A DNA stretch of 8,270 nt from Okeania sp. (GTDB lineage Bacteria; Cyanobacteriota; Cyanobacteriia; Cyanobacteriales; Microcoleaceae): assembly GCF_035285525.1 (NCBI RefSeq), contig NZ_JAYKGW010000152.1, positions 1 through 8,270 of the forward strand. The letters run 5' to 3'. Each line of letters begins with the position of its first letter. Position 1 is the first letter of the stretch. Of the stretch, positions 1 to 8,270 are shown in pieces. The position numbers and the translations under genes are program-made. The notes beneath the pieces are model-generated. The model was not told the DNA's origin. It ran no database searches and saw only the letters and a program-made list of their open reading frames with translations.

Positions 1-936
1 ATTGAAGACTGGCGAACTGATGAAGTTTGGCTATATTTAATGCAGTGGGAAAATCCTTGGGGAAATAGTAATCAAGATTTACTAGCAATGTATCGAGGTG
101 CAACGGAAGATAATGAATGTCCGTTAGTAGTTGATACTTCTACTCCTAGTTGTGGAAGTTCTCGGTTTGGATGCTGGGTTTGCACTTTAGTAGATACTGA
201 GAAGTTTATGTCAGTAATGATTCAAAATGATGAAGAAAAAGAATGGTTACAACCATTAGTAGACTTGCGTAAAGAACTAGATATTTCTGACAGAAATAAA
301 AGAGATTTTCGGAGGATTTGGGGTACAGTTCAACTGTTTGAACGGAAAGTAGATGGTGAAGTTTCTGTGGAACCAATACCAGGTCCTTACAAAAAAGAAT
401 GGCGGGATACTTTACTGAGAAAACTATTAGAAGCTCAAACAAAAATTCGGGAAACTGCTCCAGAAAATCTGCGAGATATTACTCTTATTTCTTTGGAAGA
501 ATTGAGTGAAATTAGACGTATTTGGTTGGAAGAAAAACACGAGTTTGATGATAGTTTACCTCGCATATATGAAGAGGTAACAGGAGAAGAATTTCAAGAT
601 TGTCGTCCTGGTGCAGGAATAAGTCTTTTAGGTAGTGATGAATGGTCTGTTTTAGAAGAAATATGTAATGAGGATGAAATGCACCTTGAACTTATGGCAA
701 AACTATTAGATACAGAACGGCAATATTATATTAAGTCTCACCGATATAGGATTTATGAAAGTCTCGAAAAATGTTTTGAAACAAGTTCTCGTTCTAAGGA
801 AGAAGCTATTCAAAATGCTCATAATAAAAGAGATTTAAAAGAAGCTGTCGAGACAGGAAAAGTGTCAGAGAAAATTAAACAATTAAGTTGGGCAAATATG
901 AAGTTTTCTCGTCAAAGCTCAATAGATAATGAATAA
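1..936 (+). CDS. dndC: DNA phosphorothioation protein DndC (PAPS-reductase-like ATP pyrophosphatase, 4Fe-4S). C-terminal ~311 codons only; the 5' end lies left of the window.
   Basis: Frame 1 is open from nt 1 (IEDWRTDEVWLYL precedes the listed Met at 40), so the ORF is 5'-truncated. It contains the cysteine cluster C-x10-C-x6-C-x2-C (NECPLVVDTSTPSCGSSRFGCWVCT) with the SRFGCWVCT motif I recognise from DndC. A clear DndD lies co-oriented downstream. Stop TAA at 934-936. Confidence 0.88.
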   Translation: MEDWRTDEVWLYLMQWENPWGNSNQDLLAMYRGATEDNECPLVVDTSTPSCGSSRFGCWVCTLVDTEKFMSVMIQNDEEKEWLQPLVDLRKELDISDRNKRDFRRIWGTVQLFERKVDGEVSVEPIPGPYKKEWRDTLLRKLLEAQTKIRETAPENLRDITLISLEELSEIRRIWLEEKHEFDDSLPRIYEEVTGEEFQDCRPGAGISLLGSDEWSVLEEICNEDEMHLELMAKLLDTERQYYIKSHRYRIYESLEKCFETSSRSKEEAIQNAHNKRDLKEAVETGKVSEKIKQLSWANMKFSRQSSIDNE

Positions 937-1090
937 TGAATAATTACTTTTCTCTTTTGATAAATCTCTATTTTTTCCAGTCTGAGTCAGAGGCAAAAAT
1001 TATCTGTTTTTTTAGCAAGAAAATTTGATTTTTCAGATGATGAAAATTTATCTGAAAAACTTATATCTGGAAAACCTCTATTTTCCCAGT

Positions 1091-1157
1091 GGTAGTTCTA
1101 TATATGTAGTTATAAGTTAATGTAAATGATTAGTTCTTAACATTAATGTTGAAAATC
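1091..1157. repeat. Left terminal inverted repeat of the 1.8-kb insertion.
   Basis: Pairs with the reverse complement of 2852-2918 (28/31 outer, 51/67 total). Confidence 0.7.
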
Positions 1158-1167
1158 TTACCGAATA

Positions 1168-1273
1168 ATTAAGGAATGAGAATTAAATAATATCCACAAA
1201 AATTGGCTAGAAGTACCGCACTAAAATGCTCCTGTACAGGAAATCTGGAAGTTAATAAATTCTCATTCCTAAT
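1168..1273. repeat. Small IR-bounded unit (13-bp perfect stem, 73-nt interior).
   Basis: AGGAATGAGAATT at 1172-1184 is the exact reverse complement of AATTCTCATTCCT at 1258-1270. The ATTA/TAAT flanks extend the pairing imperfectly. Confidence 0.55.
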
Positions 1274-1280
1274 AATTAAT

Positions 1281-1521
1281 AATTAGGGTTTGCTGAAAAA
1301 GTCTGATGGTAGAGGTAGGGAGTAGTTAGGAGTCAGGAAAAATAAGAGTTATAAAGGAATTAGTTAGCAGAATTGTCTCTTGATTTTTCTCTAAAGCGCG
1401 AGCTTTTTGTTCTAACTTTTTTAATCTTTTTGACCTAAAAGCTGATACTTTTTTCCAACAAACAAGTTGCTAAAATCTTTATTTTTAAATTCTTTCATAT
1501 TTCTATACGCAAGCCCTAATT
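1281..1521 (+). repeat. MITE-like non-coding module, copy E1 (241 bp), nested inside the 1.8-kb insertion.
   Basis: The left end is AATTAGGGTTTGCTGAAAAAG. The right end reverse-complemented is AATTAGGGCTTGCGTATAGAA (12/13 over the first 13 nt). Internal blocks CTCTTGATTTTTCT, TTTTTGACCTAAAAGCTGATACTTTTTT and ATATTTCTATACGCAAGCCCTAATT are shared with the copies at 4983-5802. Confidence 0.7.
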
Positions 1522-1614
1522 ATTCATTCAACAATTCAGGTTGAAAGCCTCCCTTTATTAGGGAGAAAAATGAAAAATTTTCCTTTGAGTCAATCCCCTT
1601 TTTTCAAGAAGGGG

Positions 1615-1649
1615 TAATTATTAATTATTAATTGTTCATTATTAATTGC
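1615..1649. repeat. Heptanucleotide tandem repeat (TAATTAT)n, 5 units, STRR-like.
   Basis: The units read TAATTAT TAATTAT TAATTGT TCATTAT TAATTGC. The same heptamer array recurs at 5798-5839. Confidence 0.8.
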
Positions 1650-1725
1650 TGAATTCTTTCCTGCTTAAAAATTAAAAAATTATTGTGTAGGCGATCGCCT
1701 TCCGCAAAGCTCCGCTAACGCTGTA

Positions 1726-1731
1726 TATAAT
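1726..1731 (+). promoter_or_regulatory. Candidate -10 box (TATAAT) for the hydrolase gene.
   Basis: A perfect TATAAT lies 26 nt upstream of the ATG at 1757, and a second TATAAT is at 1750-1755. No convincing -35 or Shine-Dalgarno. In AT-rich DNA such hexamers arise by chance. Confidence 0.25.
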
Positions 1732-1756
1732 CAGCTATAAAATTATCAGTATAATT

Positions 1757-2812
1757 ATGTTAAAAAGAACTTCCCTAATTTTTCTTGTTATATCTATATC
1801 TATGTTTACAAGTACGATTTTTATTTACAAGAATAACGCAGCTAAAACAGAATCTTATAAATTTGTACCTTCAAAATCTTATAAATTTGTACCTTCAAAA
1901 TCTTATACATCTCTACCTTCAGAATCTTATAAATCTCTACCTTCAGAATCTTATAAATCTGTACCTTCAGAATCTTATAAATCTGTACCCTCAGAATCTT
2001 ATAAATCTGTACCCTCAGAATCTTATACATTTGTACCTTCAGAATCTTTGAAAGATATAGCAATGAACAGCGGTTTATCTGAAGAAGCTAATATTACAGT
2101 TTGCAACCTCAAAGGACTATGCGAACATCTCAACGGGAATGAACAACTCCTTAGTGTTGCTAGCTTAATGAAGCTACCTATTGCTGTAGCACTTATCGAA
2201 AAAATAACTACAAACAATATAGATATTAACACTCAAATTTATCTAGAACCAGAAAATTTTACTGAAGATAATTCAACCTTAGATGCAGGAAACAATTATA
2301 CTTTAAAAGAACTGTTATCTGAAATGATTATTAATAGTAGTAATATTGCTCCTAATCAATTAATAGATTATTTGAGTCGTAGTTATATCAACCAAGTATT
2401 AGAGGAACAGGATTATAAAATATTAAGAGTCAATTCTAAATTCATAGGTGATTATATTATTCCATATGATATGGGATTCATTCCTAATACTGCAAATAGT
2501 GATGAACTTACTATAATGATGGTCCGTATTTATAGCAATCTTCATTTAACACACTATAAATTATTAGCTACTTTACTTGCTCAACAGCACGATCATGATT
2601 TAGGATTTACTGCATTAGAAAATACTAAAGTTCAATGGATGGGAGAAAAAACAGGTCAAAATGCTGGAGTTCTTGGTACTACTTTGGCTATAAAAGTATC
2701 AGGGGAAATTTATATTATTACTGTAATAGATGATGGAGATTATAGCGAAATAGCCCTTCGCAAATCTATTACCAATATCGCCGATTATATTTTCAAAAAA
2801 GAATCTTTTTGA
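1757..2812 (+). CDS. Exported/membrane-anchored class-A beta-lactamase-fold serine hydrolase with an N-terminal octapeptide repeat linker.
   Basis: The N-terminus is hydrophobic (LIFLVISISMFTSTIFIY), followed by 8 copies of (E/K)SY(K/T)(F/S)(V/L)PS. The three class-A motifs occur in the correct order: S-x-x-K (ASLMKLP, nt 2162-2173), S-D-N equivalent (INSSNIAPNQL) and K-T-G (GEKTGQ). No omega-loop Glu could be assigned by eye. Confidence 0.75.
   Translation: MLKRTSLIFLVISISMFTSTIFIYKNNAAKTESYKFVPSKSYKFVPSKSYTSLPSESYKSLPSESYKSVPSESYKSVPSESYKSVPSESYTFVPSESLKDIAMNSGLSEEANITVCNLKGLCEHLNGNEQLLSVASLMKLPIAVALIEKITTNNIDINTQIYLEPENFTEDNSTLDAGNNYTLKELLSEMIINSSNIAPNQLIDYLSRSYINQVLEEQDYKILRVNSKFIGDYIIPYDMGFIPNTANSDELTIMMVRIYSNLHLTHYKLLATLLAQQHDHDLGFTALENTKVQWMGEKTGQNAGVLGTTLAIKVSGEIYIITVIDDGDYSEIALRKSITNIADYIFKKESF
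1850..2050 (+). repeat. In-frame 24-bp tandem repeat, 8 full units plus a 9-bp partial unit (consensus GAATCTTATAAATCTGTACCTTCA).
   Basis: Unit boundaries fall at 1850, 1874, 1898, 1922, 1946, 1970, 1994, 2018 and 2042. Units differ by only 0-4 nt. The repeat encodes the ESYKSVPS repeats of the 1757-2812 ORF. Confidence 0.95.
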
Positions 2813-2851
2813 TGGCGATATATTCAGACTACTGGTACTTAAACATTTTCT

Positions 2852-2918
2852 GATTTCAGAAATTAATGTCATCACTTAATGGCTTATATTAACATATCAC
2901 TACATATACAGAACTACC
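2852..2918. repeat. Right terminal inverted repeat of the 1.8-kb insertion.
   Basis: Its reverse complement matches 1091-1157 (28/31 outer, 51/67 total). The tip ...ACATATACAGAACTACC ends 70 nt upstream of the dndD ATG. Confidence 0.7.
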
Positions 2919-2988
2919 AAAAAATCAAGTTAATTATCTCGCTAATTTTCTCCCTATTCTCTACTCCGTATTCCCTAAAAAAACTAAA

Positions 2989-4971
2989 ATGATTTTTCTA
3001 GAACTCGTCTTACAAAACTTCGGACCATACTTCGGTAAACAAACAATAAACCTTCGCCCTACTAACACTAACCATCCCCGTCCGATCATCTTATTTGGAG
3101 GTATGAATGGAGGCGGAAAAACTACTCTTTTAGATGCTATTCGTCTGGCACTTTATGGTCATCGTGCCCAATGTTCAACTAGAGGAAATTTAACTTATGG
3201 TGACTTTCTTTCTCAATGCGTAAATCGCAATACTCCTCCTACAGAAAAAACTCGAATTGAATTAGCTTTTGAACATATTCAAGACGACCAAGTTGTAGAA
3301 TATCGTATCGTTCGTACTTGGGAAAAAAATCCGAAAGATGGTAAAGATAATCTAGGAATCCTTGATGGGGAATGGCCTGATTCTTACTTAGCAAATACCT
3401 GGGATGAATATATAGAAAATCTCTTACCTTTGGGAATTTCTAATCTATTTCTTTTTGATGGAGAACAAGTAAAAGAGTTAGCTGAACTAGAAATACCACC
3501 ACCTTCAGTCGTAGATGCAATTCAATCATTATTAGGATTAGAATTAGCCGAACGTTTGGCAGCAGATTTAGATATTTTAGTGACTCGGAAAAAGAAACAA
3601 CTTACTAAGACTAAAGAAATAGCAAATTTAGAAGAAATTGAACAAAAACTTCATCAGCAAAAAACAGATTTGGAAGTTGCTACAAAAAAATTGAAAGATT
3701 TAGAAAAGCAATTAGATAAATCTCAAGAAAAGCAAAAAAAAGCCATGAGAAAATTTGTCTCAGAAGGAGGAAAAATTGCTGCGGAAAAAAGTCAGTTAGA
3801 ACAAGAGTTTAAAGATGTAGAATTGGAAATGGATAATGCTCGTCAAAAAATGGTTGAACTTGCTGGGGGTGCTTTACCTCTAGCTTTAATTTCTCCCCTT
3901 TTGGAACAAGCAAGTTCTCAAGGCGATTTAGAAATTTTACGTCAGGAAGCTGAAATTGCTTTGGATGCTTTTCAGGAAAGAGATAAACGTCTACTTGATT
4001 ATCTGAATAATTTATCTATTCCTATTGATAAAGTTAGTAAAATTGAAGAGTTTCTCAATCAAGAAAATTTGACCCTGAAAGAAGAGATTAATCAAGTTGA
4101 TGAACCTTGGTTATTGGCTGATGAAGAAGCTTTAACTTTATTAGAAAATTTGTTGCGCAATGACATTGAAAATTCTCGGAAAAATGCTCAAGAAAGTTTA
4201 AGTAGTTTGCAAGATTTGGAAGTAGAAATAAATGTTCTGGAAAAACAATTAGCAACCGCAGCATCTCCCGAAGCTTATGAACTTTTAGCAACTGCTTTGG
4301 AAGAAGCGCAAACTGAGTTAGCAAGAGTACAAGTTGCTTGTGAAAATAGTCAACGCGATCGCAAAAATTTGGAGGATGCGATTAATAAAACTAAGAAAGA
4401 ATTGTTTAATTTTACCGACGAAACTATGGAGCGTCAAAATATTCAACATATAATTAATTCTTCTGCCAAAGTCAAGCAAACTTTACAGCTATTTAAAGAT
4501 AAATTAACTGTCAAAAAACTCAATAAATTAGAAATAGAAATTACTGAATGTTTACGTTACCTTTTGCATAAGTCTGACTTAGTTCATCGCATCGCTATTG
4601 ATACTCATAATTTTGCTCTTTCTCTCTATGATAATCAAGGCAAACTTGTTCCTAAACATCGAATATCTGCTGGAGAAAAACAACTTTTAGCAATTTCTTT
4701 TTTATGGGGTTTAGCAAGAGTTTCTGGTAGACGTTTACCTGTGGTTATTGATACACCTTTAGGTAGGTTAGATTCAGAGCATCGGCAAAATTTAGTTGAA
4801 CGTTATTTCCCTGCTGCTAGTCATCAAGTAATTCTCTTATCTACTGATACTGAAGTTGGTAAATTAGAAGTAGAAAATTTGCGTAATTTAGAAGCGATCC
4901 AATACGAATATTTGCTCAAATATGATTCTCAAAAAAATCAAACTAATATCAAAAAAGGTTATTTCTGGTAA
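2989..4971 (+). CDS. dndD: DNA sulfur modification protein DndD (SMC/ABC-like ATPase).
   Basis: The protein is 660 aa. The N-terminus MIFLELVLQNFGPYFGKQTINL plus Walker A GGMNGGGKTT (nt 3097-3126) matches the DndD family start. The middle is a long coiled-coil-like, E/K/L/Q-rich region. The C-terminus has the signature-like ISAGEKQLLAISFLWGLA and the Walker B/D-loop LPVVIDTPLGRLD. The gene lies co-oriented downstream of dndC. Confidence 0.9.
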   Translation: MIFLELVLQNFGPYFGKQTINLRPTNTNHPRPIILFGGMNGGGKTTLLDAIRLALYGHRAQCSTRGNLTYGDFLSQCVNRNTPPTEKTRIELAFEHIQDDQVVEYRIVRTWEKNPKDGKDNLGILDGEWPDSYLANTWDEYIENLLPLGISNLFLFDGEQVKELAELEIPPPSVVDAIQSLLGLELAERLAADLDILVTRKKKQLTKTKEIANLEEIEQKLHQQKTDLEVATKKLKDLEKQLDKSQEKQKKAMRKFVSEGGKIAAEKSQLEQEFKDVELEMDNARQKMVELAGGALPLALISPLLEQASSQGDLEILRQEAEIALDAFQERDKRLLDYLNNLSIPIDKVSKIEEFLNQENLTLKEEINQVDEPWLLADEEALTLLENLLRNDIENSRKNAQESLSSLQDLEVEINVLEKQLATAASPEAYELLATALEEAQTELARVQVACENSQRDRKNLEDAINKTKKELFNFTDETMERQNIQHIINSSAKVKQTLQLFKDKLTVKKLNKLEIEITECLRYLLHKSDLVHRIAIDTHNFALSLYDNQGKLVPKHRISAGEKQLLAISFLWGLARVSGRRLPVVIDTPLGRLDSEHRQNLVERYFPAASHQVILLSTDTEVGKLEVENLRNLEAIQYEYLLKYDSQKNQTNIKKGYFW

Positions 4972-4982
4972 TATAGAACTAC

Positions 4983-5206
4983 TTGAATCGGGAATAGGGA
5001 ACAGGTGCGAATTTCTATTTTTTTATTTACTTTTTGATTTGTCACAACCTATTTAAGATTGCTATATCACCTCTAATTTTTCTGCCCAACTCTTGCCCAA
5101 ATACTAACTTTTTGACTTAGGCAAACATCTGGTACTTTTTTACTGCCTAAAATGACTAAAACCTTTAGATATAAATCCTTTTATATTTCATCAGCAATCC
5201 CTAATT
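4983..5206 (+). repeat. MITE-like module, copy E0. Lacks the canonical left end and abuts the dndD stop.
   Basis: It shares CTCTAATTTTTCTGCC, AAATACTAACTTTTTGAC, CTGGTACTTTTTT and the right end ...CAGCAATCCCTAATT with the other copies. Its last 80 bp are identical to the corresponding part of E2. Confidence 0.6.
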
Positions 5207-5584
5207 ATAGTTTGCTGAAAAAGTCTTTTAGTCCGAGGGAGGAGTCAGAATCTAGCAATTCTGCAATCCAGAAGGAATAGTCATTACAAAAGAGGTAGGA
5301 ATAAGAATTATCTCTTGATTTTCTGTCACAATTAGCCAAAAATACTAATTAGCGTTGGTAATTTAATTGGTGGGATAATTTTTGAATAGGGGTGATTCCC
5401 ATTACTTACTCTAGTTAAATATTTAGAGGTATTAAAAACAGATTACTTTTCAAACTTTATCCCTTGATTTACCAACGCTGACTTTTTAGCTTTCCCGACC
5501 TAAAATCTGGTACTTTTTTACTGCCTAAAATGACTAAAACCTTTAGATATAAATCCTTTTATATTTCATCAGCAATCCCTAATT
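5203..5584 (+). repeat. MITE-like module, copy E2 (382 bp, or 253 bp without the nested insert).
   Basis: The left end is AATTATAGTTTGCTGAAAAAG. The right end reverse-complemented is AATTAGGGATTGCTGATGAAA, which is 17/21 to the E1 left end. It overlaps the neighbouring copies by the shared AATT. Confidence 0.7.
5351..5479. repeat. Nested 129-bp IR-bounded insert inside module E2.
   Basis: AGCGTTGGTAA at 5351-5361 is the exact reverse complement of TTACCAACGCT at 5469-5479 (12/13 with one more base). The insert interrupts E2 just after the conserved AAATACTAAYT block, ahead of the TTTTTGAC-type block that follows it directly in E0. Confidence 0.6.
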
Positions 5585-5802
5585 ATAGTTTGCTGAAAAA
5601 GCAGAGTGTGGGAACTGTAGTCCGGGTGGGAATAAAAATAATTAGGAGGAATAATTGTTCCTTAATTTTTCTGCCATAGCTAGCCTGAAATGCTAACTAA
5701 TTGAAGTGTTTTTTGCTGAAATAAGTACACTTTTTTTGACCCAAAAAAGGTAAGTACCTTTATGTATCAATGCTTTGATATTTCCATACGGAAACCCTAA
5801 TT
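5581..5802 (+). repeat. MITE-like module, copy E3 (222 bp).
   Basis: The left end AATTATAGTTTGCTGAAAAAG is identical to that of E2. The right end is ...CATACGGAAACCCTAATT. Internal blocks CCTTAATTTTTCTGCC, AAATGCTAACT and TTTTTTGACCCAAAA are shared with the other copies. Confidence 0.7.
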
Positions 5803-5839
5803 ACTAATTGTTAATTATTAATTATTAATTATTGATTTA
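5798..5839. repeat. Heptanucleotide tandem repeat (TAATTAY)n, 5 units plus a degenerate sixth.
   Basis: The units read TAATTAC TAATTGT TAATTAT TAATTAT TAATTAT TGATTTA. The array starts within the right end of E3 and ends 13 nt before the ATG at 5852. Confidence 0.8.
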
Positions 5840-5851
5840 ACCTATTTTTTT

Positions 5852-6532
5852 ATGTCAAAAAATAGAATTGCTAAAACTTCATTATTTTTTATAATATTTG
5901 TAGTTATTTGCTTGAATATTGGTTACTTTACTCCGAGAAATTTGAGTAATAATTCTGATGATTTGAACTTCTCAAATAAGACCATACCCATATATGTTTA
6001 TAATATGGGTATTCATACAGATATTCTACTTCCAGTTCAAACCAAAATTTGGGATTGGCAACAACATTTAAACTTAAAATTAATAGCTAATCCATCAATT
6101 TCCATAAATTATCTAGCTTTTGGTTTAGGCGATAGAGCTTATTTTCTAGAAACTTATAATCAGACATCATTACCAATCGTGACAGCTTTGAAAGCTCTAT
6201 TCCTACCAACACCTTCTGCAATCAGAGTATTAGCTTATCAAAATATTCCTCAAAAATATGAAATTAAATGTGTTATGATTAGTCAATCTAATTATCTAAT
6301 TCTAACCAAATTTATCAATAATTCTTTTCAATTTGATGCCCAAAATAATAGAAAAATTATCAAAATAGACCCTAATTATAAAGTTGGTTTTTATGCAGGA
6401 AAAGATACCTATTCAATTTTAAGAGCTTGTAATGATTGGACAGCAGAAGCTCTGAGATTAGCAGGAATAACAACTCCTCTATGGTCAGGACTTTCTAGCT
6501 CAATTATGTATCATCTTAATGATAACTGCTAA
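5852..6532 (+). CDS. Membrane-anchored DUF2459/TIGR02117-like hypothetical protein.
   Basis: The protein is 226 aa with an N-terminal TM helix (LFFIIFVVICLNIGYF). The motifs GIHTDILLP, AFGLGDRAYF and a C-terminal ACNDWTAEALRLAG resemble what I recall of the TIGR02117 (DUF2459) family. This is a motif-level call only. Confidence 0.55.
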   Translation: MSKNRIAKTSLFFIIFVVICLNIGYFTPRNLSNNSDDLNFSNKTIPIYVYNMGIHTDILLPVQTKIWDWQQHLNLKLIANPSISINYLAFGLGDRAYFLETYNQTSLPIVTALKALFLPTPSAIRVLAYQNIPQKYEIKCVMISQSNYLILTKFINNSFQFDAQNNRKIIKIDPNYKVGFYAGKDTYSILRACNDWTAEALRLAGITTPLWSGLSSSIMYHLNDNC

Positions 6533-6696
6533 TAACTGCGATCGCTTTCTTAAATTCAAAATTCAAAAGTTCGAAATTTGTAGGTGTGTGACGGCATCCT
6601 TTTTTCAATTTTGGGGAAACTCCAGAAATTTTTCCTCACGCACCTTTTTTTGGGATTGGTAGACGATTTATAGTGCGTTACTGACACGCCTAAAAA

Positions 6697-6800
6697 TGTA
6701 GGTTGGGTTGTTGCTTGCTAACCCGTAGCGGTACGATAGTGAAACTCAACAAAGCCATACTATTATTGGTGTTCGGTTTCGTTCCTTAACCCAATCTACA
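6697..6800. repeat. Degenerate copy of the cyanobacterial GTAGGTTGGGTT...AACCCAACCTAC inverted-repeat family.
   Basis: TGTAGGTTGGGTT at 6697-6709 matches the reverse complement of AACCCAATCTACA at 6788-6800 (12/13). The internal GGTTTCGTTCCTTAACCCAATCTACA resembles the common TTGGGTTTCGTTCCTCAACCCAACCTAC repeat of filamentous cyanobacteria. Confidence 0.6.
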
Positions 6801-6854
6801 GCTACTTCATCAAATGCCTATTCCTGATGGTTGGTTAAATGAAACCTAATCTCT

Positions 6855-6907
6855 CAGCCCCCCCCTTCCCAGAAGCGCTTTGGGGGAGAGGTCTTAACCT
6901 ATGTTCT
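6855..6907 (+). repeat. G/C-rich dispersed repeat, copy 1 (CAGCCCCCCCCTTCCCAGAAGCGCTTTGGGGGAGAGGTCTTAACCTATGTTCT).
   Basis: It recurs in direct orientation at 6939-7028 with an internal insertion. Confidence 0.8.
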
Positions 6908-6938
6908 GAAGCTAGAGCCGCTATAAAAGCTAACCCCC

Positions 6939-7028
6939 CAGCCCCCTTCCCAGAAGCGCCTTGGGGGAGAATAACTCCCCTCTCAAAAGTAGGAGAGGGG
7001 TTGGGGGAGAGGTCTTAACCTATGTTCT
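6939..7028 (+). repeat. G/C-rich dispersed repeat, copy 2, interrupted by a 30-bp hairpin element flanked by a 10-bp duplication.
   Basis: CAGCCCCCTTCCCAGAAGCGCCTTGGGGGAGA is followed by ATAACTCCCCTCTCAAAAGTAGGAGAGGGG, then a second TTGGGGGAGA, then GGTCTTAACCTATGTTCT. The insert has an 8-bp stem (CCCCTCTC/GAGAGGGG). Confidence 0.8.
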
Positions 7029-7165
7029 TCCCTGCAACACCAGACTTGAATAAATTATTTCCCTAAAAAAAGAGCCACTATTTTCCCACAATACTTATTT
7101 AATTAGATAATATAACAACTTTTTCTGCTTGTCAAGTGCGACCGCTATCAAATCCGTAAACCAAA

Positions 7166-7193
7166 GTAGGGACGTTCCATGGAACGTCCCTAC
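7166..7193. repeat. Perfect 28-bp palindrome GTAGGGACGTTCCATGGAACGTCCCTAC (REP-like).
   Basis: The sequence is self-complementary over all 28 nt, with CCATGG at the centre. It lies about 95 nt beyond the alsS-like stop in the convergent intergenic region. Confidence 0.9.
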
Positions 7194-7231
7194 AGGATGG
7201 TGAGGTACACTTAAAAATTAACCTCTATCTT

Positions 7232-7272
7232 TGTAACACAACCTTCCAGGTTGTTACAGCCTTCAAGGCTGT
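7232..7272 (-). terminator. Two adjacent, similar hairpins just downstream of the acetolactate synthase stop. Possible intrinsic terminator.
   Basis: On the minus strand the hairpins read ACAGCC-TTGAA-GGCTGT, then AACAACCT-GGA-AGGTTGTGTT (2-nt bulge). Both are built on CCTKGAAGG. An AATTTTTAA tract follows only about 20 nt later, so this is not a canonical stem plus U-run. Confidence 0.35.
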
Positions 7273-7286
7273 GTCACCACTCATTA

Positions 7287-8270
7287 CTAAATCGCACAAC
7301 TCAAACCACCTGACTTTTTAGTAAAACGAGCATTCTCCCGATAATCAACCCGACAATCTATCACCGCAGGAACATCTTGAGCAAGCGCCTCCTTCAAAAT
7401 AGGAACTAAATCCGCAGCAGACTCTACTCGATAACCCTTCAAACCGAAACTCTCTGCAAATTTCACAAAATCAGGATTGCCAAACTTAATAAAAGAAGAC
7501 GTACCAAAATGATTTTCCTGCTTCCACTCAATCAAACCATAACCGCCATCATTAAAAATCAAAGTCACAAAAGCAGTACCCACCCGCAAAGCAGTTTCCA
7601 ACTCTTGACAGTTCATCATAAACCCACCATCTCCTGTTACTGCGACAACCTTGCGGTCAGGATAAACCAACTTGGCAGCGATCGCTCCCGGAATCGCAAT
7701 ACCCATCGCCGCAAAACCATTAGAAATCAAACAAGTATTAGGGCGATCGCAATGATAATGTCTAGCAATCCACATTTTATGGGCACCAACATCAGAAATC
7801 ACAATATCCTCCGCACCCATAACCTGGCGTAAATCATAAATTAGTTTTTGAGGTTTAATCGGAAACCCATCATCCTTACCATATTCCTCATATTCAGAGC
7901 GCATATTTTTTCTAATTTCTGATATACTCGGACTTAATTTATTTATGCGCTCCGAACGTCGTAAAATTTCATTCAAAGAATCAGAAATATCTCCAATTAT
8001 TTCTGCAATTGGAATATAACTGCTATCAATCTCCGCATATTTTTCCCCCACATGAATAATCGGAATTTCCCCTTGAGGATTCCATTTTTTCGGTGAATAT
8101 TCAATCATATCGTAACCAATTGCAATCACCAAATCTGTTTCATCAAAAGCACAACTAATATAATCGCGTTGTTGTAAACCAGTCGTCCATAAAGACAAAG
8201 GATGAGTATAAGGTATCACACCTTTACCCATAAAAGTATTAGCAACCGGAATATTTAATTGTGTAGCAAA
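7287..8270 (-). CDS. alsS: ThDP-dependent acetolactate synthase, catabolic AlsS type. C-terminal ~327 codons only; the 5' end lies right of the window.
   Basis: The minus-strand frame stays open to nt 8270 (FATQLNIPVANTF precedes the listed Met). The ThDP-binding motif GDGGFMMNCQELETALRVGTAFVTLIFNDGGYG lies at about nt 7548-7634. The C-terminal FGNPDFVKFAESFGLKGYRVES...VIDCRVDYRENARF closely parallels Bacillus AlsS as I remember it (FGNIDIVKYAESFGATGLRVES...IIDVPVDYSDN). Stop TAG at 7287-7289. Confidence 0.8.
   Translation of the reverse strand, partial: FATQLNIPVANTFMGKGVIPYTHPLSLWTTGLQQRDYISCAFDETDLVIAIGYDMIEYSPKKWNPQGEIPIIHVGEKYAEIDSSYIPIAEIIGDISDSLNEILRRSERINKLSPSISEIRKNMRSEYEEYGKDDGFPIKPQKLIYDLRQVMGAEDIVISDVGAHKMWIARHYHCDRPNTCLISNGFAAMGIAIPGAIAAKLVYPDRKVVAVTGDGGFMMNCQELETALRVGTAFVTLIFNDGGYGLIEWKQENHFGTSSFIKFGNPDFVKFAESFGLKGYRVESAADLVPILKEALAQDVPAVIDCRVDYRENARFTKKSGGLSCAI

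Follow-up and report, generated by a model that had tools for sequence, protein, structure and literature searches.

A candidate mobile insertion cassette with a PBP-A-like serine hydrolase gene between dndC and dndD of an Okeania metagenome-assembled genome

Mobile insertion cassettes (MICs), of which the IS231-derived MIC231 of Bacillus cereus is one example, are elements of about 1–3 kb with terminal inverted repeats, one or a few passenger genes, no transposase, and a patchy presence, with ends that match a resident insertion sequence (IS) or Tn3-family transposon and with target-site duplications at their borders. Miniature inverted-repeat transposable elements (MITEs), exemplified in cyanobacteria by Nezha in the Nostocales, are likewise bounded by terminal inverted repeats and devoid of a transposase, and are AT-rich and inserted between genes. 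The MIC concept is established in the literature (PMC3913671, PMC2600179, PMC4337579), with further examples provided by the qnrS2 and qnrD MICs of Aeromonas and Proteeae and the Tn3-derived MICs with TALE genes in Xanthomonas (PMC2600179, PMC3913671, PMC5444012, PMC4337579). Here we describe a 1,829-bp element that shares several of these features and lies between dndC and dndD, two genes of the dnd system of DNA sulfur modification (phosphorothioation), on a contig of 8,270 bp from an Okeania sp. metagenome-assembled genome (MAG), which is taken in full and hereafter referred to as the window. As to the genomic setting, Jian et al. 2021 described cyanobacterial dnd systems with “various configurations”, “disorder of the operon structure”, and incomplete clusters (PMC8569181), and Pfreundt et al. 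2014 reported that the Trichodesmium genome is 40% non-coding and rich in repeats and transposons, including tandem arrays that duplicate the 3' end of the adjacent gene (PMC4143802).

A first-pass annotation of the window had placed the dndC stop (936) and the dndD start (2989) 2,052 bp apart, with most of this distance attributed to a transposase-less insertion bounded by inverted repeats that holds a complete cargo gene and nested repeats; the distance is as given, and the insertion is borne out by the open reading frames (ORFs), the repeats, and a comparison with 15 relatives. A DndD-based scan of species-representative genomes yielded 80 loci (loci and contigs are cited here by L numbers), about 17 of which are from Okeania, Trichodesmium, Dapis, and related MAGs with DndD identities of 80–91%, and the 15 close relatives are those with dndC and dndD on one contig. 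Comparison of window positions 937–2988 with the relatives' loci by blastn reveals that 939–1090 matches their dndC–dndD spacers, with the match ending at 1087–1090, restarting exactly at 2919, and continuing to the dndD start (L017, 7931–8000, 84%; also L014, L038, L010, L009, L019, and L021). Nothing matching positions 1091–2918 was found in the dndC–dndD spacers of the close relatives, and the serine hydrolase gene carried by this segment is missing from the dnd loci of 15/15 relatives and from all 80 DndD loci, as are both arms of the inverted repeat. The two breakpoints coincide with the outer tips of the inverted repeat to within 1–3 bp, which identifies the bounded segment as inserted DNA specific to this lineage. 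At the level of sequence, these alignments show a presence/absence polymorphism, with the element absent in the 15 close relatives, and place its entry into the dndC–dndD spacer solely in the lineage that led to this Okeania MAG.

The DNA on either side of the element is that of the relatives' spacers. On the dndC side, positions 962–1037 and 1038–1087 match between 2 and ~22 tandem copies per relative at 72–94% identity, all of them within dndC–dndD spacers, and a 13-nt internal repeat (962–974 and 1072–1084) is present in what remains of this array in the window. On the dndD side, positions 2919–2988 share 84–87% identity with the last 44–70 bp before dndD in L017, L014, L038, L010, L009, and L019. 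The element is located ~70 bp upstream of dndD and disrupts no gene.

The inverted repeat itself is real and non-random. A repeat search of the window returned two arms of 68 nt with 76% complementarity, and direct counting gives 52/68 matches overall and 28/31 in the first 31 nt, in agreement with the 51/67 and 28/31 counted initially once the outermost T/A pair is assigned to the flank. Arm identity is highest at the tips and decays inward, the termini of the element read TG...CA, and the arms, read from the sequence, have no palindromic structure of their own. The best local inverted-repeat score in 900–3050 was 28, compared with a mean of 15.3 (sd 2.2, maximum 26.5) for 100 dinucleotide-preserving shuffles, none of which (0/100) scored as high, and the concern voiced in the first-pass annotation that the match might lie within the background of AT-rich DNA is thereby answered. 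The 21-nt tip occurs at only two sites in the window with 3 mismatches tolerated, with a chance expectation of 0.

Within these ends lies a 351-aa gene, and the ORF list of the element contains no transposase or recombinase, with no ORF of at least 40 aa in 1091–1756 and all remaining ORFs overlapping the hydrolase gene. Subterminal repeated transposase-binding motifs are not present in the element above chance expectation. At 1.83 kb and coding, the element is several times too large for a MITE, the true MITE-like units being the nested 255-bp and ~130-bp repeats, and with 68-bp arms that hold no ORF it does not have the build of a composite transposon. The remark made at the outset that it is unusually large for a MITE was right as to size, although the class of such elements already has a name, that of the MIC. 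Terminal inverted repeats, a passenger gene, and the lack of an internal transposase or recombinase gene are all found here as in MICs, whereas neither a target-site duplication nor ends matching a resident IS or Tn3-family transposon, both typical of known MICs, were found for the cassette in the collections searched. It further differs from these in its host, a marine filamentous cyanobacterium, and in its nested MITE-like repeats.

The interpretation we prefer, and hold to be somewhat probable, is that of a MIC-like, non-autonomous element with terminal inverted repeats and one passenger gene, into which MITE-like repeats were later inserted, and which became fixed as a single copy at an insertion hotspot. 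The transposase that moved it would have acted in trans and come from another place in a genome. At least two small MITE-like repeats, typical of Okeania and Trichodesmium genomes, have since colonised the element, which would now probably be old, immobile, and present in single copy.

Several observations weigh against this interpretation. No direct repeat that could represent a target-site duplication is common to the two flanks, ...TTTTCCCAG(T) and (A)AAAAATCAAG. Once the element is taken out, alignment of the window to L009, L038, and L010 leaves a gap of ~93–97 bp in the last unit of the array, located between CCCAGT and AAGAATC, a loss that points to insertion plus flank deletion, or to replacement, rather than to a clean insertion. 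Alignment of the orthologous junctions, proposed in the first-pass annotation as a way of finding an empty site, does give a lineage-specific insertion and relatives without the hydrolase, but no exact empty site in the data compared, with ~95 bp missing; as 5.8 billion proteins include none from a closer genome, above 91% DndD identity, the exact site is not recoverable. The arms, moreover, are only 76% identical. In the large collections, which were scanned for the exact 19–21-nt tip only, there were 0 matches in 596 Gb of species-representative genomes, 0 in IMG/VR, and no true match in JGI metagenomes, where the single match (L087) was rejected as a chance 20-mer in unrelated coding DNA, on a contig with a serine hydroxymethyltransferase-like gene. 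A search for diverged arms in 86 related loci (1.2 Mb; nhmmer and blastn-short) recovered only the window's own Logan copy, and none of the further copies, an autonomous one among them, that the first-pass annotation had proposed to look for in related genomes, and the whole element (1085–2925) has no match in PLSDB (blastn, distant mode). Neither a cognate transposase nor a second copy of the ends was found in the collections searched, the MAG beyond the window not being among them. It had been held at first that ends occurring nowhere else, together with a dndC–hydrolase–dndD order in all related genomes and no empty site, would speak against an insertion; the ends indeed occur nowhere else in the collections, but the relatives do not show that order.

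The same observations lend some weight to an alternative in which recombination or repair, for instance illegitimate recombination or the repair of a break, brought in the 1.8-kb segment in place of ~95 bp of the array. The arms would then not be transposase substrates; they could be what is left of the donor locus, or a short repeat present twice and inverted by chance. We regard this as unlikely, though well within consideration, given that there is no target-site duplication, that ~95 bp of flank is missing, that the ends are absent elsewhere in all collections searched, and that the spacer is an unstable array, 184–3,641 bp long among relatives, in which rearrangements are frequent. Against it, homology breaks off on both sides at the outer tips of the repeat, which is not expected of random recombination, the decay of arm identity inward from 28/31 at the tips is the pattern of transposon ends, and the arms, unlike whole MITEs, are not palindromic. 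With a MIC-like insertion, the missing duplication and the loss of ~95 bp of flank could reflect a later or concomitant adjacent deletion in the unstable repeat array.

A pair of linked and more far-reaching readings we advance only tentatively, namely that the element, whose ends are without a match in about 600 Gb of reference genomes, is the first example to be seen of a new cargo-capturing family of cyanobacterial transposons with terminal inverted repeats, and that the spacer is a conserved “landing pad”. Such a landing pad would repeatedly gather mobile elements, nuclease-like guests, and tandem arrays, with its flanking genes under purifying selection.

Inverted repeats that flank a 1.7-kb segment between co-oriented genes might also suggest an inverton, with the arms serving as recombination sites that flip the hydrolase segment and thereby alter read-through among dndC, the hydrolase gene, and dndD. 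As first described, these genes share one orientation, that of the + strand. This explanation appears very improbable, with the arms forming part of the inserted DNA and absent in relatives, and with no recombinase gene in the window. Typical inverton repeats are unlike arms as long as these, which are only 76% identical. A single orientation is moreover seen in the MAG contig and in L001, the only independent assembly. L001, a Logan contig, reproduces the stretch from the hydrolase gene through the right arm to dndD at 100% identity, and ends at 1998 within a 24-bp tandem repeat, so that the left half of the element is known from one assembly only. This would leave room for an assembly chimera in the metagenome-assembled contig; however, the right junction is reproduced independently, and the left arm adjoins dndC-side spacer and the right arm dndD-side spacer, symmetrically and at exact breakpoints, which argues against a chimera to the point that we give the idea scarcely any credence.

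The cargo is, on the strength of its predicted protein, an intact PBP-A/class A beta-lactamase-like serine hydrolase. It matches the Pfam family PF13354 (Beta-lactamase2) with an E-value of 3.9e-20 and 72.6 bits (cutoff 22), the only other Pfam match being to Peptidase_S11, below cutoff, and its SxxK (SLMK), SxN (SSN), and KTG motifs align with those of PDB 4ewf. Second to this structure in the PDB come matches to Tll2115, the PBP-A of Thermosynechococcus (PDB 2j7v), with the similarity to solved structures being weak (E about 3e-4). The protein thus shares PF13354 and the SxxK/SxN/KTG motifs with the cyanobacterial PBP-A family and with class A beta-lactamase-like hydrolases, and differs from the PBP-A family in an N-terminal run of 8 octapeptide repeats, which corresponds in the DNA to 8.4 tandem copies of a 24-bp unit at 1848–2048 (Tandem Repeats Finder, TRF). 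An N-terminal hydrophobic segment is also present, and the hydrolase is probably exported. The name beta-lactamase is not warranted: against the NCBIfam class A beta-lactamase model NF033103 the protein scores 27.6 bits, far under the equivalog cutoff of 200, and for this reason we name it a PBP-A-like serine hydrolase.

The hydrolase gene is out of place in this genome. Its nearest homologues are 52–67% identical, with those of named source coming from other filamentous cyanobacteria and with no other Okeania or Trichodesmium genome among the matches listed. Homologues with available context occupy ordinary chromosomal neighbourhoods, twice directly behind a DUF4332 gene, and the exact protein was found on no other contig. 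A foreign composition of the cargo was also considered and rejected, with the G+C content at third codon positions (GC3) of the hydrolase gene (0.165) being close to that of dndC and dndD (0.19).

The non-coding part of the element is occupied largely by repeats. Beyond those given in Table 1, inverted arms of 31 nt with 81% complementarity lie at 1270–1300 and 1600–1630. The nested MITE-like repeat has related copies in the window at 5170–5500 and 5548–5850, and the second dispersed repeat has copies of 72–83% identity in L008, L012, L014, L016, L017, L019, L021, and L038, outside the dnd spacers; for either repeat, sequences akin to it occur both within 5170–5850 of the window and in related genomes. 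The HIP1 octamer, found once upstream of the hydrolase gene, is a hallmark of cyanobacteria. Taken with the GC3 value, HIP1 suggests that the donor was a similarly AT-rich cyanobacterium or that the element is old, and the copies of the nested repeats elsewhere, together with both, suggest that the element has long been resident in a cyanobacterium of this type.

Table 1. Positions of the annotated features in the 8,270-bp window
Feature	Position	Strand	Remarks
dndC, 3' part	1–936	+	5' end outside window; stop codon 934–936; TIGR03183
Tandem-array remnant, about 1.3 units	937–1090		array fills relatives' dndC–dndD spacers
Left terminal inverted repeat	1090–1157	+	begins TGGTAGTTCTATATATGTAG; T1090 perhaps flank
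Hairpin-forming inverted repeat	1172–1270		25-nt arms, 84% complementary; 49-nt loop
Nested MITE-like repeat, 255 bp	1274–1528		20-nt terminal inverted repeats 1274–1293/1509–1528, 90% complementary
Second dispersed repeat, ~130 bp	1530–1660		(TAATTAT)n run 1615–1647; terminator-like hairpin 1595–1614 (+)
HIP1 octamer GCGATCGC	1691–1698		within element, upstream of hydrolase gene; read from sequence
Serine hydrolase (cargo) gene, 351 aa	1757–2812	+	PF13354; WP_324237340.1 / MEB3341910.1
Right terminal inverted repeat	2852–2919	-	A2919 perhaps flank; junction confirmed by L001
Conserved segment directly upstream of dndD	2919–2988	+	retained intact; degenerate CCCTATT-type heptamer tract
dndD, complete, 660 aa	2989–4971	+	TIGR03185; WP_324237341.1 / MEB3341911.1
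DUF2459 gene	5852–6532		downstream of dndD
Thiamine-pyrophosphate (TPP) enzyme gene	7287–8231	-	downstream of dndD

The expectation that dndC and dndD are adjacent or overlapping and translationally coupled, from which the first-pass annotation set out, does not carry over to cyanobacteria. In 64 cyanobacterial loci that carry both genes on a single strand, the dndC and dndD alignments lie 72 to 3,641 bp apart, with a median of about 830, and the genes never overlap; in the 15 close relatives the gap is 184–3,641 bp. A “split operon” is ordinary for this group, and the surprise is gone once cyanobacterial relatives are compared. Tandem arrays of 125–233-bp units are found in the spacer of 10/15 close relatives, with that of Okeania sp. 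KiyG1 (L013) holding 22.5 copies of a 150-bp unit (TRF; 4487–7795), and that of T. erythraeum IMS101 6 x 189 bp plus 5 x 226 bp. Mobile DNA is also found there, with an IscB gene present in the spacer of Okeania sp. SIO1I7 (L012, 6537–7853; NF040563, E 3.5e-145) and with the DNA directly before dndD in KiyG1 and O. hirsuta (L016) holding matching non-coding sequence that looks like remnants of the end of the IscB element. Guests in the spacers of distant cyanobacteria include IS200-like Y1 transposases (L025, L028, L049, L061, L067, L073, and L078), PD-(D/E)XK_3 (L063 and other Microcoleus loci), Uma2 (L051 and L052), DUF924 (L030–L032), and DUF364/GAF (L043 and L044), several of which resemble nucleases or transposases.

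The spacer in this clade is thus shown to be a long, fast-evolving tandem-repeat tract and a recurrent landing site of mobile DNA, and the relatives' long and variable spacers imply that the element landed in an already plastic spacer rather than in a tight operon junction. Like the cassette, the IscB gene of SIO1I7, the Y1 transposases of L028 with their REP-like hairpins, and the PD-(D/E)XK_3, Uma2, and DUF924 guests occupy the same region, are lineage-specific, and leave dndC and dndD intact; in contrast to it, they are elements of different types, none of them with a hydrolase. Of six guest-holding spacers that were scanned, only that of L028 has repeats that bracket the guest, these being REP-like, and no transposon-type terminal inverted repeats like those of the cassette were found. 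This recurrent layout of dndC, guest, and dndD may merit a study of its own, including whether nuclease-like guests act with the modification system.

Further repeats were noted in and around these spacers. Spacer arrays also occur at 5808–7994 of L018 and in L007, L008, L014, L016, L017, L019, and L038, with units 82–99% alike, and among the DNA fetched the array units were found in the dndC–dndD spacer only. Heptanucleotide microsatellites lie within the ~50–70 bp directly before the dndD start, at ~2950–2988 in the window, and take the form of (CCCTATT)n in L019, L016, L014, and L013, and of (GATAACT)n in L008, L015, and L018. Depending on the genome there are ~1 to 8 copies, a variation that could alter promoter or ribosome-binding-site spacing. 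Directly 3' of dndD, the last ~35–65 codons of the gene are tandemly repeated with a ~150-bp period in 2–4 extra copies (L013, 9884–10441; L018, 9905–10354; L007, 10025–11090; also L008, L009, and L017), with copies 99% alike in T. erythraeum IMS101 and none in the window; these arrays resemble the duplicated gene-3'-end arrays reported for Tery_0080 (PMC4143802). A TnpB gene is located downstream of dndD in O. hirsuta (L016, 10333–11247).

Both dnd genes of the window are intact against their profiles, the part of dndC that lies in the window scoring 366.8 bits against the DndC model TIGR03183 (cutoff 290.4; profile positions 185–446 of 447) and dndD 699.2 bits against TIGR03185 (cutoff 245.85; positions 1–650 of 650). 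DndC shares 91–95% amino-acid identity with relatives, and dN/dS values against relatives are 0.10–0.18 (against sets of seven and of four relatives), with those of dndD alone being 0.13–0.18. The suggestion made at first that the locus may be on its way to decay, with the insertion uncoupling dndD from dndC and the system being inactivated, finds no support in these full-length genes under such constraint, and we judge it improbable. In its favour, no dndE is present in the window, although small ORFs were not searched with a DndE profile, and the 880 bp 3' of dndD consist of MITE-like repeats and a lineage-specific DUF2459 gene. Relatives with intact genes nevertheless have spacers of up to 3.6 kb, the 70-bp dndD-proximal segment is retained, and by ORF size, again with no DndE profile applied, nothing of the length of dndE follows dndD in L012, L016, or L018 any more than in the window; disordered and incomplete dnd clusters have, in addition, already been noted across cyanobacteria (PMC8569181).

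That relatives keep intact genes with gaps of up to 3.6 kb suggests that dndD does not depend on translational coupling, and, with spacers of this length tolerated, dndD expression may not have been critically changed by the element. A weak consensus scan placed a terminator-like hairpin upstream of the hydrolase gene (1595–1614) and none from the hydrolase stop to dndD, and in 2813–2988 it gave no sigma-70-like match on the + strand. For the dnd system as a whole, the insertion is probably close to neutral.

The surroundings of the dnd genes vary as well. Relatives have a DGQHR/DndB-like gene ahead of dndC and in the opposite orientation to it, in a region whose counterpart falls outside the window. 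In O. hirsuta, dndC is immediately preceded by an HNH-domain ORF (L016, 4357–5328), which weakly resembles restriction endonucleases that bind phosphorothioated DNA (NF045808, 114.5 bits versus a cutoff of 180), whereas no ORF of at least 90 aa occupies this position in L012 or L018. Downstream of dndD in the window, the DUF2459 gene (flanks at 5124–5850 and 6839–7030) has no counterpart in any of the 86 loci, and the TPP enzyme gene beyond is syntenic in relatives; the DUF2459 gene is a second lineage-specific guest, with MITE-like repeats on its flanks. Direct repeats of 100 nt, 99% identical and 378 bp apart, occur at 5124–5223 and 5502–5601, their 3' portions forming the start of two MITE-like copies of the family that is also nested at 1274–1528. 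In 6861–7028, G+C-rich repeats of 28–29 nt (CCCCCTTCCCAGAAGCGC.TTGGGGGAGA and TTGGGGGAGAGGTCTTAACCTATGTTCT) are present in two copies each, the window being otherwise AT-rich. An Rfam scan of the whole window, with E-values up to 1, returned no RNA family.

Whilst the practical consequences of these findings are small, they correct an expectation taken from the dnd operons of Streptomyces and enterobacteria: in cyanobacteria dndC and dndD lack tight coupling and have between them a hotspot of insertion and array expansion, and, given this loose spacing, a gene in that position does not in itself indicate rewiring or decay. A partner transposase, if found, would define the family to which the element belongs. 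If it is indeed MIC-like, the cassette would be a clean example of a non-autonomous element bringing a cell-envelope enzyme gene into a new genome, and cargo cassettes of this kind are little documented in marine filamentous cyanobacteria.

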